From a virus: a stretch of DNA of 64,000 nucleotides. The notes under the pieces are model-generated. The model was not told where the DNA came from. It saw nothing but the letters and a program-made list of their open reading frames with translations, and made no database searches. This document shows, piece after piece, positions 50,643 to 53,287 of the stretch (positions within the stretch are counted from its first letter, which is position 1; every line of letters starts with the position of its first letter). Position numbers and translations under genes: made by a program. Where the stretch lies: IMG/VR virus record IMGVR_UViG_3300008450_000004, positions 32,001-96,000 of that record; one strand, given 5' to 3'.

Positions 50643-50825
50643 ATGGATGATATTGAAGAAAAAAATTATCGAATGGAGTTATTTAGGAATTCACCTAATT
50701 ACAAATGGCCTAAAGTAGATTCAGAGGAAATGATTAAACCTCATTCAAAAAAAGGTCGTAAACCAAAACCCTCTAAACGTATTATAAATAAATCATCTGA
50801 ACATTATAAATGGTGGAGAGATTAA
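50643..50825 (+). CDS. small basic protein
   Basis: KKGRKPK basic motif; start at ATG 50643. Confidence 0.55.
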   Translation: MDDIEEKNYRMELFRNSPNYKWPKVDSEEMIKPHSKKGRKPKPSKRIINKSSEHYKWWRD

Positions 50826-50826
50826 T

Positions 50827-50997
50827 ATGATAGTAACAAATAAAACACAAGAAGTTATAGAAGAATTTGGTGTAGACCTGGTTTATGAAGTAATTGAAAT
50901 AGTGTCAATGTCAGATGCTGATGGTGCATATACAATGTTTGGGGATATGGGTATGTTTGATCATCAGGCCTGTGTTGAAATGTTGTATTTCGAATAA
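50827..50997 (+). CDS. small acidic protein (56 aa)
   Basis: read by hand (MIVTNKTQEVIEEFG...). Confidence 0.55.
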   Translation: MIVTNKTQEVIEEFGVDLVYEVIEIVSMSDADGAYTMFGDMGMFDHQACVEMLYFE

Positions 50998-51025
50998 AAA
51001 ATTATATTTTTAATTGTATAAGATT

Positions 51026-51057
51026 GGGACTGTCAAAGTCCCTTTTTTATCTTTACA
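51026..51057 (+). promoter_or_regulatory. G(G/T)CAA-N11-TATCTTTAC promoter-like motif overlapping a terminator-like hairpin, upstream of the cassette array
   Basis: gggact-gtcaa-agtccc-tttttt-atctttaca; motif recurs more than ten times in the window. Confidence 0.55.
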
Positions 51058-51063
51058 CCTGTT

Positions 51064-51111
51064 AAACGTCCGATGATAAACAATCGTTTTAATGTTGTTT
51101 ATCATTTGTTA
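51064..51111. repeat. attC-like hairpin B0 (short)
   Basis: AAAC-gtccg-ATGATAAACAA-loop-TTGTTTATCAT-tt-GTTA. Confidence 0.6.
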
Positions 51112-51148
51112 TATTTAGTTTTCGTTTAATTTACAAAATAATAAAAAT

Positions 51149-51397
51149 ATGGAAAAAGAAAAATTTATTGATGATAATGGTAAAGAAATATATGAGATTT
51201 CTTGTAAGACCGTATATAAGGAAGAGGATTTATCACCACATATTGTGTGTAATTTCACCTTAAAAAATATTGATGAAAATTGGGTAGTCAATATGAAAGA
51301 AGAAGATAGAGAAGAATTCATAACTGATGCTTTTTATAAGTTAAAATATTTTTTAAGGGGTGAAATTGGTAGTATTAAAAAATTAAACGAAAATTGA
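51149..51397 (+). CDS. cassette 1 hypothetical protein
   Basis: 82-aa ORF inside segment 51108-51404. Confidence 0.7.
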   Translation: MEKEKFIDDNGKEIYEISCKTVYKEEDLSPHIVCNFTLKNIDENWVVNMKEEDREEFITDAFYKLKYFLRGEIGSIKKLNEN

Positions 51398-51400
51398 ATA

Positions 51401-51515
51401 TAACGATTCGCAGGTATGAAACGTGCCAACACAAATGATAATTGAAACAATGAATTTGAAATTAACATAAATACTAACTTAGATGCACCAAGGGCATGTT
51501 TTATACTTGCTGTTA
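51401..51515. repeat. attC-like hairpin B1
   Basis: TAAC-gattc-GCAGGTATGAAACGTGCC...GGCATGTTTTATACTTGC-t-GTTA. Confidence 0.75.
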
Positions 51516-51531
51516 GGCATCTGTAAAAATT

Positions 51532-51699
51532 ATGGATATGAAAACGAAAAATTACATTAAAACTTATTATAAGTTATACTTTACTGAGTGGAAATGGGTA
51601 ATACTTGGAGTTGGTGCATTACCAATATTTGTACTGATATTGTTATCAGGGATACTACATGACATTACACACCCACTTAGTAATTTTTATTGTGCATAA
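51532..51699 (+). CDS. cassette 2 small membrane protein (55 aa)
   Basis: read by hand (MDMKTKNYIK...WVILGVGALPIFVLILLSGIL...FYCA); its stop codon is the TAA of TAAC. Confidence 0.6.
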   Translation: MDMKTKNYIKTYYKLYFTEWKWVILGVGALPIFVLILLSGILHDITHPLSNFYCA

Positions 51700-51783
51700 C
51701 GGCTGCGTGTATGAAACGTAGCCACACACAACACTTGATATAAACCACAGACCTTAATTGGCTATGTTTTATACACGTTGTTA
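51697..51783. repeat. attC-like hairpin B2
   Basis: TAAC-ggctg-CGTGTATGAAACGTAGCCA...TGGCTATGTTTTATACACG-tt-GTTA. Confidence 0.75.
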
Positions 51784-51888
51784 TAAATATGGTTTTAGGT
51801 GGCGAAAGCAGTAGCACCATCTATTTGAATGTATTTGATTTAGTACTGGCGAGGGAAAAGTTAGTCATTCACACCTAAAACTTGTTTA

Positions 51889-52005
51889 TAACGTTTTGCG
51901 TATTGGCGTTGTTGCCAACACTAATGTTAAATTGAAAAAATAAATTTGAAATATATGGAAAATATTGATTTGAAACAAGAAAGCAATAATGCTAATACGC
52001 TGTTA
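51889..52005. repeat. attC-like hairpin B3
   Basis: TAAC-gtttt-GCGTATTGGCGTTGTTGC...GCAATAATGCTAATACGC-t-GTTA. Confidence 0.75.
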
Positions 52006-52176
52006 TCGGCAGTTTCTCGTCCTGTTGCTAAAATGAAAGTACAATGGCATGGGTATGATTGTATTATACAGAAACTACGATACAGAGATAAGGTTGCTAA
52101 ACTCAAACCTGATTATAGTGGTAAACCCATGCCATACGATTATTTTTGGGTAGATTTTAATGAAATCGGTTTTTGA
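51955..52176 (+). CDS. cassette 4 protein starting inside hairpin B3
   Basis: MENIDLKQESNNANTLLSAVSRP...; crosses GTTA at 52002. Confidence 0.65.
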   Translation: MENIDLKQESNNANTLLSAVSRPVAKMKVQWHGYDCIIQKLRYRDKVAKLKPDYSGKPMPYDYFWVDFNEIGF

Positions 52177-52185
52177 AATTGCCGA

Positions 52186-52313
52186 TAACGGTTTGCGTGT
52201 TTATTTAGTTGCGATTTAAAAATACAAAATTATGATAAAAGAAAAAGAATACTTAGAAGCAAAAAAGATTGTTGAAACCTACGAAAGCGAGCAATTGAAT
52301 AAACACGCTGTTA
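52186..52313. repeat. attC-like hairpin B4
   Basis: TAAC-ggttt-GCGTGTTTATTTAGTTGC...GCAATTGAATAAACACGC-t-GTTA. Confidence 0.75.
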
Positions 52314-52426
52314 GTGGGCAAAGCGAACAGTTACCAAACTCTTGCGAATGTGATAATGTAGAAACATTCAATGGCTGGGGTAACGAAAAATGTATTAGAT
52401 GTATAGACTGTGGCAGAGTTTGGTAA
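52232..52426 (+). CDS. cassette 5 Zn-finger-like protein starting inside hairpin B4
   Basis: MIKEKEYLEAKKIV...LNKHAVSGQSEQL...CEC...CIDC; crosses GTTA at 52310. Confidence 0.65.
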   Translation: MIKEKEYLEAKKIVETYESEQLNKHAVSGQSEQLPNSCECDNVETFNGWGNEKCIRCIDCGRVW

Positions 52427-52489
52427 TTGCCACTAACTATTATATATACTTAACCATATTTTCTTACCAATAAAATCAATAATTTAAAT

Positions 52490-53287
52490 ATGAAAATTCT
52501 TAAAGTATTTGAAGAAAAATTAAGATACAAAAACTATTCTAATAACAGTATCAAGTTATATATTTCTTATTTAAAACTTTTTTTAGAAACGGAAAAAATT
52601 AAAGACCCATATCAAGTAAGAACTCAACAGATAGTCTCATTCCTTGAAAATTACCCATATACTTCTTGTAGCCAACAAAATCAATATATAGGTGCTCTTA
52701 AACTATTTGCTAAATATATCTTAAATAAAAAGGATATTCATTTAAGTAAAATAGAAAGACCTAAATCAGAAAAGAAATTGCCGAAAGTGGTAGATGGAGA
52801 GCTTATCAAAACACAACTACAAAAAATAGAAAATATTAAACATAAAGCAATTCTTAGTTTAACCTATTCAGTTGGACTAAGAGTATCTGAAATAGTTAAT
52901 CTTAAAATCGAAAGTATCGATTCTAAACGAATGTTGATTCACATTAAAAACGCTAAAGGTAAAAAAGATAGAATTGTACCCTTATCACCAACTGTTTTGA
53001 ATCTACTTAGAGAATATTATATAGAATATAAACCAAAAGAATACTTATTTAATGGTCAAAACTCAAATCAATATTCAATAGGTAGTTGTCAAAAAATCTA
53101 TAAAAAATACATTGATGAGAATAGTTCAATACATAATCTTCGACATTCTTCATTTACCGGCTTATTAGAAAACGGAACTGATTTAAGAATAATTCAAAAA
53201 ATAGCAGGACATTCTAATATCAAAACTACTGAAATATATACTCACGTATCAAATCAACTCTTAGGTAAAGTGAATTTAGTTATTTAG
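52490..53287 (+). CDS. tyrosine recombinase / integrase (XerD/IntI-related)
   Basis: N-terminal SAM-like domain; GLRVSE (R), KGKKDR (K), HNLRHS (HxxR), GHSNIKTTEIYTHV (H, Y). Confidence 0.92.
   Translation: MKILKVFEEKLRYKNYSNNSIKLYISYLKLFLETEKIKDPYQVRTQQIVSFLENYPYTSCSQQNQYIGALKLFAKYILNKKDIHLSKIERPKSEKKLPKVVDGELIKTQLQKIENIKHKAILSLTYSVGLRVSEIVNLKIESIDSKRMLIHIKNAKGKKDRIVPLSPTVLNLLREYYIEYKPKEYLFNGQNSNQYSIGSCQKIYKKYIDENSSIHNLRHSSFTGLLENGTDLRIIQKIAGHSNIKTTEIYTHVSNQLLGKVNLVI

Follow-up and report, generated by a model that had tools for sequence, protein, structure and literature searches.

A phage-borne cassette array, probably of integron-like kind, with coding hairpin sites upstream of a short Xer-type recombinase gene

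In integrons, one-gene cassettes stand in arrays, with imperfect hairpin sites of AAC/GTT core between them, and a half-site lies beside the gene of the tyrosine recombinase. On the integron bottom strand the order is array, half-site, integrase, and the folded strand is cut in its 5' arm, at AAC. The cassette site, attC, has the layout R''-L''...L'-R' with a GTTRRRY core, and extrahelical bases mark the recombinogenic strand. Cassette open reading frames (ORFs) lie upstream of their attC, are read from Pc and are divergent from intI; where cassettes originate is an old open question. Here we describe an array that shares some of these features in a 64,000-nucleotide (nt) stretch of viral DNA, called the window below, which belongs to a virus record of 116,881 bases rated about 70% complete. 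The window has a G+C content of 29% and carries long ORFs on the + strand only; positions are those of the window and refer to the + strand unless stated. Positions 51889-52437 very probably represent two complete cassettes, B3 and B4, of a phage-borne integron-like platform run by a short Xer-type recombinase, with TAAC as the regular junction and GTTA as a second, rarer one. The elements concerned are the following.

51892..52188, +: cassette B3, made of hairpin 51889-52005 and a body
51889-52005: hairpin B3, with TAAC 51889-51892, a 5-nt spacer, an 18-bp stem 51898-51915 / 51983-52000, 1 nt and GTTA 52002-52005
51955..52176, +: B3 ORF, 73 amino acids (aa), ATG in the B3 loop, internal ATG at 52033
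52189..52436, +: cassette B4, made of hairpin 52186-52313 and a body
52186-52313: hairpin B4, with TAAC 52186-52189, stem 52195-52212 / 52291-52308 and GTTA 52310-52313
52232..52426, +: B4 ORF, 64 aa, start in the B4 loop, GTT as the codon of Val-27
52310..52437, +: B4 body from GTTA to TAAC, found elsewhere behind a different, longer hairpin (locus L138)
52434..52449, +: attI-like half-site, TAAC (52434-52437) and a T/A-rich run, no hairpin
52490..53287, +: Xer-type tyrosine recombinase, 265 aa, starting about 53-54 nt after the lone TAAC

B3 and B4 belong to an array of five hairpin sites of one design (51065-52313): (T)AAC, a spacer of 3-5 nt after AAC (2-4 after a conserved G), stem, loop, return arm, 0-1 nt and GTTA. 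The stem measures 13 bp in B0 and 18-20 bp in B1-B4. Each stretch between hairpins is bounded by an inverted repeat of 12-25 nt that extends GTTA on the left and TAAC on the right (e.g., 52002-52016 / 52175-52189 and 51108-51132 / 51380-51404). We propose that a cassette consists of a 5' hairpin site (TAAC, a bulge of some 5 nt, a stem of 18-24 bp with many G.T pairs, loop, other arm, 1 nt, GTTA) and a body closed by the inverted repeat that extends GTTA and the next TAAC. Good pairing of such a site would be confined to the + strand. On the integron model, this strand would fold, the recombinase would cut within the TAAC of the 5' arm, and the excised circle would re-enter at the half-site. 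Because the genes lie on the folded strand, the site marks the 5' end of its gene. The loop of a long hairpin would give the start codon and the first 13 to 50 residues, and translation would then pass through the 3' arm, GTTA and the inverted repeat.

The likeness to integrons, especially sedentary chromosomal ones, extends to the core-to-core unit, the folding bias toward one strand and the homogeneous site families with unrelated cargo. The order on the folded strand (array, half-site, recombinase gene in sense) is also the same, and the simple attI site adjoining the integrase gene has its counterpart in the hairpin-free TAAC half-site. An AAC/GTT core and an imperfect hairpin, as in attC, are present. 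Unlike in attC, strand asymmetry lies in the spacers (3-5 against 0-1 nt), which form a 5:1-nt asymmetric bulge, and in G.T pairs: G.T or T.G accounts for 695 of the 5465 stem pairs of 287 confident hairpins, and these would therefore be mismatches if the other strand folded. Further differences are that the cassette ORFs run in the same direction as the recombinase gene, each downstream of its own hairpin, that the site is translated, that an inverted repeat closes each body, and that the recombinase has no IntI insertion and stays under every curated cut-off. Whereas integron attC sites are treated as noncoding, the related site here regularly supplies the cargo's start codon and leader. We regard the platform as a variant of integrons that falls outside the group itself.

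The recombinase has the Pfam domains Phage_int_SAM_4 and Phage_integrase and belongs to a very large environmental family (7914 of 8000 scored candidates at E <= 0.001). Among solved structures it is closest to archaeal XerA proteins, with a full-length match (4a8e, E 5e-34, residues 7-258; also 5hxy). XerA, which resolves chromosome dimers at dif, has the same two-domain layout, whereas the recombinase here ends phage cassette arrays. The match to IntI4 (2a3v) is split in two, with 31 query residues (176-207) facing 79 of IntI4 (180-259); the integron-specific insertion is therefore absent. TIGR02249 gave 143 bits, in two stretches, against a cut-off of 265, and the NCBIfam models NF040815 (183 bits versus 220), XerC (151 versus 335) and XerD (149 versus 330) all stayed under theirs, which places the protein outside the Xer/dif family by curated cut-off. 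Nothing related to the region came up when cultured phages were searched by nucleotide; at the protein level, the closest integrases from such phages are only 36 to 38% identical (Cellulophaga phage Ingeline and Polaribacter phage Leef). In a hairpin-started ORF of another locus (L040:5707-6489) that runs in frame into the recombinase gene, the recombinase match covers only residues 103-265, and a cassette seems to have replaced the N-terminal domain. Smyshlyaev et al. (2021; PMC8138268) describe the insertion of the integron-subgroup integrases as essential for integron function. The recombinase at this array lacks this segment, which is regarded as essential for integron chemistry.

Exchange between PeSL motifs (promoter/stem-loop elements) is homology-based and is not known to involve a dedicated recombinase, and some integron cassettes, such as aac(6')-Ib and ORF-11 of attI1, borrow their start codon from upstream sequence. 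Compared with these two cases, the present locus stands out as follows. From PeSL exchange it differs in its dedicated recombinase, its half-site, the 4-nt junction and a translated frame that passes across the motif. What it has in common with the start-borrowing and fused cassettes is an N terminus that depends on sequence upstream of the junction; those are rare accidents of site loss or context, whereas here 95 of 158 long hairpins start an ORF, with a preferred phase. Fused integron cassettes are described in PMC4670013, and modular shuffling bounded by PeSL motifs in T4-type phages in PMC2839356 and PMC4122927, where small accessory ORFs bounded by stem-loops in phage hyperplastic regions are, like the modules here, gained, lost and replaced. 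Qi et al. (2023; PMC9892861) reported canonical integron parts and integrase-less attC clusters (CALINs) in phages, with sites found by integron tools and recombined by IntI1 at G|TTRRRY, the bottom strand being preferred. Their systems, too, are cassette-like arrays in virulent phages, including a Polaribacter phage, with DNA methyltransferase cargo; the abstract and section 3.4 of that paper mention no Xer-type recombinase partner, coding hairpins or half-protein exchange. A CALIN comprises at least two attC sites with no integrase near. The array in the window is not one, as the recombinase follows 53 nt after it, while locus L139 may fit: it holds at least six hairpins at L139:3153-5105 and no recombinase within its 12 kb, being either an integrase-less array or one whose enzyme lies further away. 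In the main texts of Creative Commons-licensed PMC papers and of bioRxiv, we found no description of the present recombinase-plus-hairpin system or of coding hairpins.

We then turned to the points at which cassettes are exchanged. Related loci (L numbers) were gathered from viral contigs (56) and metagenome contigs (80), giving 115 sequences after de-duplication, the window counted; L139 and L140 were found by a degenerate search for the B4 body. L139:4199-4748 is 100% identical to window 51888-52437 over 550 nt, and this is the only match of that 12-kb locus to the window. L140:12899-13151 corresponds to window 52185-52437, that is, to B4 alone, at 96.4% identity, with different flanks on both sides. 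The flanks of both blocks diverge directly outside (A)TAAC and after TAAC. In a metagenome run from another study (X8), the L139 form was recovered with 0 differences and the same flanks. Run X5 contained one 476-letter contig in which 51887 is joined to 52185, so that exactly the 297-nt B3 cassette is absent (6 letters, ATAACG, are ambiguous), and contigs of run X4 stop at the same junctions.

The same break recurred throughout the collection. Among the high-scoring segment pairs (HSPs) between the 115 loci, 108 begin at the AAC of a 5' arm and extend at least 40 nt past GTT, as opposed to 7 that end at GTT with at least 40 nt upstream (51 versus 2 in the first 56 loci). A census of all pairs of 276 hairpin units found the hairpin alone shared in 510 pairs, the downstream body alone in 75 and the hairpin with its downstream body in 28 (30 if the 2 pairs sharing everything, from two near-duplicate loci, are counted); the upstream body alone was shared in 20 pairs and the hairpin with its upstream body in 0. 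L004 and L117 have two cassettes in common (96 to 97%), in swapped order, and L036 and L117 have one (93%). In both comparisons the matching stretch begins at a TAAC and stops at the following TAAC(G), and the hairpin after it is unrelated. The bases at -2 and +3 around the core follow the neighbor, and exchange therefore takes place inside the four letters TAAC. Comparison of the loci thus shows the regular junction to be the TAAC of the 5' arm and the mobile unit to extend from TAAC to the next TAAC. Since the counts, the exact cases and the span in the window all point to TAAC, the gene normally travels whole with its own upstream hairpin, and the cassettes are mobile units bounded by crossover at the core. 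The original prediction had left the side of crossover undecided; the AAC side, on which each gene stays intact with its own site, is the one upheld as the regular route, and the GTT side is not. One further joint, 51122>51390 in runs X3 and X4, was not used, its short side being only 28 letters long and inside an inverted repeat.

The array has a clear polarity. The upstream regions of 36 recombinase genes were compared, namely that of the window and those of 35 L001-L072 loci that have a full-length match as well as 100 nt of flank. In 35 of the 36, AAC leads into a run of the TATATA/ATATAT type, mostly 54-55 nt before the start codon, and similarity between phages begins at the TAAC of the half-site. 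Newly arrived units sit beside this half-site in front of the recombinase: after the CACTAAC that closes B4, the window has the half-site, whereas in L139, L140 and L138 the next element is a hairpin, a different one in each. As the array ends in a bare TAAC beside the recombinase and in a complete hairpin at the far end, its orientation, earlier called unsettled, is now settled.

Are the hairpins real sites? In the 64 kb, TAAC...GTTA hairpins with stems of 18-20 pairs occur four times, all on the + strand and only at 51401-52313; other calls have at most 11 pairs. In the related loci, hairpins of the same design upstream of the recombinase gave 409 calls on the recombinase strand and 80 on the opposite one. 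Single-sequence DNA folding formed the long stem on the + strand only, with energies modestly better than those of shuffles; B3 (-15.9 kcal/mol, z -2.3) and B2 (z -3.3) clearly beat them. Across the 115 loci, a conserved triplet stands five bases outside the core on both sides (ATT-N5-TAAC and GTTA-N5-AGT), the two pairing with one wobble, which suggests a predicted binding arm of about 12 bp and accounts for a recurrent Val-x-x-Ser in the encoded proteins. A loose arm pattern, TAACGNNNNGCGNNT with at most 2 mismatches, was dropped as a window-wide enriched motif: it occurs 48 times against 56 expected, and the only exact matches are in B3 and B4. Rfam gave no match within 50800-52700. Three identical long hairpins (L030:2206-2331, L030:2597-2722 and L117:3587-3712) have loops with GGTTCGATTCC-like stretches resembling tRNA T-arms.

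We next considered the reading frames that cross the sites. The original prediction placed the starts of the B3 and B4 ORFs in the loops of their hairpins and had the frames cross GTTA in different phases; its coordinates and peptides were all correct. B3 reads AAT GCT AAT ACG CTG TTA TCG GCA GTT (NANTLLSAV) across the 3' arm and GTTA, the G being a third codon base (CTG TTA), while in B4 QLNKHAVSGQ spans the arm and GTTA, with GTT read as Val-27. Such frames are frequent. An ATG ORF that starts inside the hairpin and continues at least 25 codons past GTT was found in 95 of 158 long hairpins (>100 nt), compared to 9 of 158 in the mirror-strand control, 8 of 100 mid-size hairpins and 5 of 35 short ones. 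GTT is a Val codon in 74 of the 95, usually followed by Ser-x-Ser, which stems from the conserved binding-site triplet. The loop codons of 24 distinct heads from a single family had entropies of 1.09 / 0.73 / 1.32 by position, variability being highest at position 3 and lowest at position 2. The B4 ORF has no in-frame ATG, GTG or TTG after GTTA; its C-half is Cys-rich, with C38, C57 and C60 nearly invariant. All 11 relatives of the B3 protein conserve its core, which begins at about residue 22, and one of them (P0150) has Ala in place of Met-27. The claim that the recombination site is protein coding is borne out by the frames open in relatives, the lack of a later start in B4 and the lack of an internal Met in P0150. 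The hairpin-encoded head of B3 is probably translated.

Neither Pfam nor PHROGs matched the B3 and B4 ORFs or the neighboring ORFs. The 94 distinct hairpin-started ORFs, searched with Pfam, yielded 5 N6/N4 DNA methylases, 2 C5 methylases and 1 Lar-like protein; 1 runs into a recombinase gene, 2 have weak matches to unrelated families and 83 had no Pfam match. The nameable cargo, these seven DNA methylases and the Lar-like protein, is anti-restriction, and the platform is therefore probably a phage counter-defense library.

Several observations weigh against the picture drawn so far. What reads as a deletion in the X5 variant could instead be an insertion, and another phage may be the source of the B3 sequence found on a different X5 contig. 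Crossover is resolved only to within TAAC. At the thresholds used, downstream bodies are common without the hairpin (75 pairs) more often than with it (28); calling GTTA "rarer" is therefore a statement per junction, measured against TAAC (0 linkage), and does not hold for absolute numbers. A first, body-centered test of hairpin linkage gave 18 left, 14 right and 12 equal, because missed hairpins merged cassettes. The folding energies of B4 (z -0.8) and B1 (z -1.1) are no better than those of shuffles, as their loops are long and AT-rich, and it is therefore the recurrent architecture that argues for the hairpins, and not the energy; the number of - strand hairpins depends on the pairing rule used. 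No joint of an excised circle was listed among the contigs of the metagenome runs, which is uninformative since contigs drop rare forms; likewise, stretches that no contig of these runs covered carry no weight. The action of the recombinase, the circular intermediate and the choice of the folding strand are carried over from the integron analogy. Finally, the internal Met-27 of B3 is kept in 11 of 12 sequences, and three B3 relatives (P0155-P0157) have much shorter heads. The B3 head may therefore be dispensable.

Of the alternatives, the one that fares best would make the hairpins RNA-level or regulatory boundary elements of the PeSL type, exchanged by homology or microhomology between co-infecting phages, and the recombinase an ordinary integrase. 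In its favor, an RNA hairpin would have G.U in place of G.T, every gene is on the folded strand, no recombinase accompanies the L139 array within its 12-kb locus, and exchanges at GTTA have no known enzymology. We nevertheless consider it unlikely. In most loci with enough flank, the arrays lie directly upstream of this recombinase family and on its strand, they invariably terminate at one and the same half-site, some 54 nt ahead of the recombinase start, and the breaks fall inside a 4-nt core with no flanking homology. Sigma-70-type promoters number 11 versus 11.6 expected, and with a recombinase and half-site present the locus does not have the PeSL composition of an early sigma-70 promoter and stem-loop without a dedicated recombinase. 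TAnnTTTG, a Bacteroidota-type promoter motif, is present in only 6 of 158 loops. A promoter in the loop, as a candidate in its own right, was dropped in both forms, the sigma-70-like sites being at the expected number and TAnnTTTG below the window background (B3 has one copy, at 51941-51948).

A second alternative holds that the true starts lie downstream of GTTA, that the heads are untranslated and that the open frames are a by-product of site conservation. It draws on the in-frame ATG of B3 at 52033, kept in 11 of 12 sequences, on the three short-headed B3 relatives, and on the fact that hairpin sequences would be conserved for DNA reasons anyway. Translation from the loop is nevertheless much the better explanation, and a start downstream improbable: B4 has no such start codon after GTTA, its body stands behind 12 different heads that are all open and in frame, the 95 of 158 long hairpins against 9 of 158 mirror controls were obtained in DNA of 29% G+C, the entropy pattern by codon position points to coding, and P0150 has no internal Met.

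The heads and tails of these proteins also recombine. L138:10461-10592 matches window 52306-52437 at 93.2%, its upstream part is unalignable, with the break at (T)GTTA, and the longer hairpin upstream of its B4 body encodes another head. The B4 protein has 25 non-self relatives, of which 21 were aligned (P0127, P0130, P0132 and P0141 were left out). A single one shares both halves with B4, whereas 12 share only the C-half and 8 only the N-half, so the two halves do not always co-occur, and the same N-half is found with different C-halves. The 12 carry a nearly identical C-half (EQLPNSCECDNVETFNGWGNEKCIRCIDCGRVW) behind heads that differ in length and sequence, in proteins of 62-105 aa; the 8 carry the head (MITEKEYLEAKKIV.TYESEQLNKHAVSG.SEQL) before other tails. 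Similarly, L034 and L070 (92.7% over 716 nt) and L002 and L061 (88.9%) have the body in common and not the hairpin, contigs diverge directly after the A of the GTTA of B2 (after 51783), the head families MKDLKHIKRFNESEENLNISD-V and M.KDNKNTELDNTDKKLHISD-V precede unrelated tails, and the B3 head occurs with another body at L010:2341. Judged from these alignments, GTTA is a real second junction, rarer than TAAC, at which hairpin (front half) and body (back half) are re-paired in nature. Of the fusion shuffling originally proposed, the pairing of one N-half with different C-halves, and the converse, with the break at (T)GTTA, holds; as the main route of exchange it does not.

We also asked whether shared heads with different tails could reflect fast divergence of one small zinc-ribbon-like family behind a DNA-constrained site, with no exchange at GTTA. 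Behind the B4-type head, several of the 8 other C-halves are indeed Cys-rich too (CxxC...CxxC). The B4 C-half is nearly identical in 12 proteins with unalignable heads of varied length, and L138 is 93% identical from GTTA on and unrelated before it, which makes this explanation very improbable. Divergence alone cannot account for the C-half set, which contradicts it; it may still hold for part of the N-half set.

How re-pairing at GTTA would come about can be pictured in more than one way. The GTT phase shared by most coding hairpins helps front and back halves to be re-paired. The - strand hairpin might be used occasionally, deleting a body and the next hairpin and fusing hairpin k to body k+1; the same recombinase might make a second cut; or illegitimate recombination might occur at the 4-5-nt core. 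As a traveling unit, a body with its downstream hairpin was seen in 0 of 20 pairs of the census, and deletion-type events therefore fit better than such mobile units. It is conceivable, if somewhat doubtful, that the GTT(A) at the hairpin foot is a second crossover catalyzed by the recombinase, which would join site-encoded leaders to start-less bodies in any combination. If true, phase-compatible exon shuffling would have a viral counterpart at the DNA level. The hairpin-encoded leaders may also have a role of their own, such as sorting or stability. With TAAC and GTTA, the platform has two natural exchange points, of which one moves genes and the other re-pairs protein halves, and it opens to test the need for the IntI insertion, strand choice without extrahelical bases and the assembly of small proteins by site-specific recombination.

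The weakest alternative, regular crossover at G|TT of the 3' arm with a unit made of a body and its downstream hairpin and a new N/C fusion at each move, can be set aside as scarcely credible: the inverted repeats flanking the bodies fit either polarity, 7 HSPs end at GTT with upstream extension and bodies do occur with other hairpins, but hairpin and upstream body were shared in 0 pairs though the upstream body alone was in 20, the L139 block, the L140 block and the X5 variant all break at TAAC, and the integrase-proximal end is a bare TAAC with the full hairpin at the far end.

The remainder of the array, away from the recombinase, has the following features.

51065..51111, +: distal short hairpin B0, AAC...GTTA with a 13-bp stem, far end of the array
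51067..51403, +: cassette behind B0, from the core C to the AA of the next TAAC, with an ORF of 82 aa at 51149-51397
51108-51132 / 51380-51404: I1, the inverted repeat flanking the body of the B0 cassette, 25 nt, 92% complementary, extending GTTA / TAAC
51404..51699, +: cassette with hairpin B1, TAAC 51401-51404, GTTA 51512-51515
51532-51699, +: ORF of the B1 cassette, 55 aa, start after GTTA, stop formed by the TAA of TAAC 51697-51700
51700..51891, +: cassette with hairpin B2, TAAC 51697-51700, 20-bp stem, GTTA 51780-51783

The stop codon of the second cassette (ORF 51532-51699) is thus the TAA of the TAAC at 51697-51700, as originally noted. The B2 cassette has no + strand ORF of at least 30 aa; the cargo of the stretch behind B2 (51784-51888) may be a very small peptide or an RNA. 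Just 5' of B0, at 51026-51051, a 6-bp G+C stem with a T run after it resembles an intrinsic terminator, the only such site in the region. The B0 hairpin itself (51065-51113, 46-49 nt) is 100% identical in several phages whose recombinases share only 65 to 80% identity, and its summed contig depth reaches into the thousands in all four metagenome runs compared, with many different flanks.

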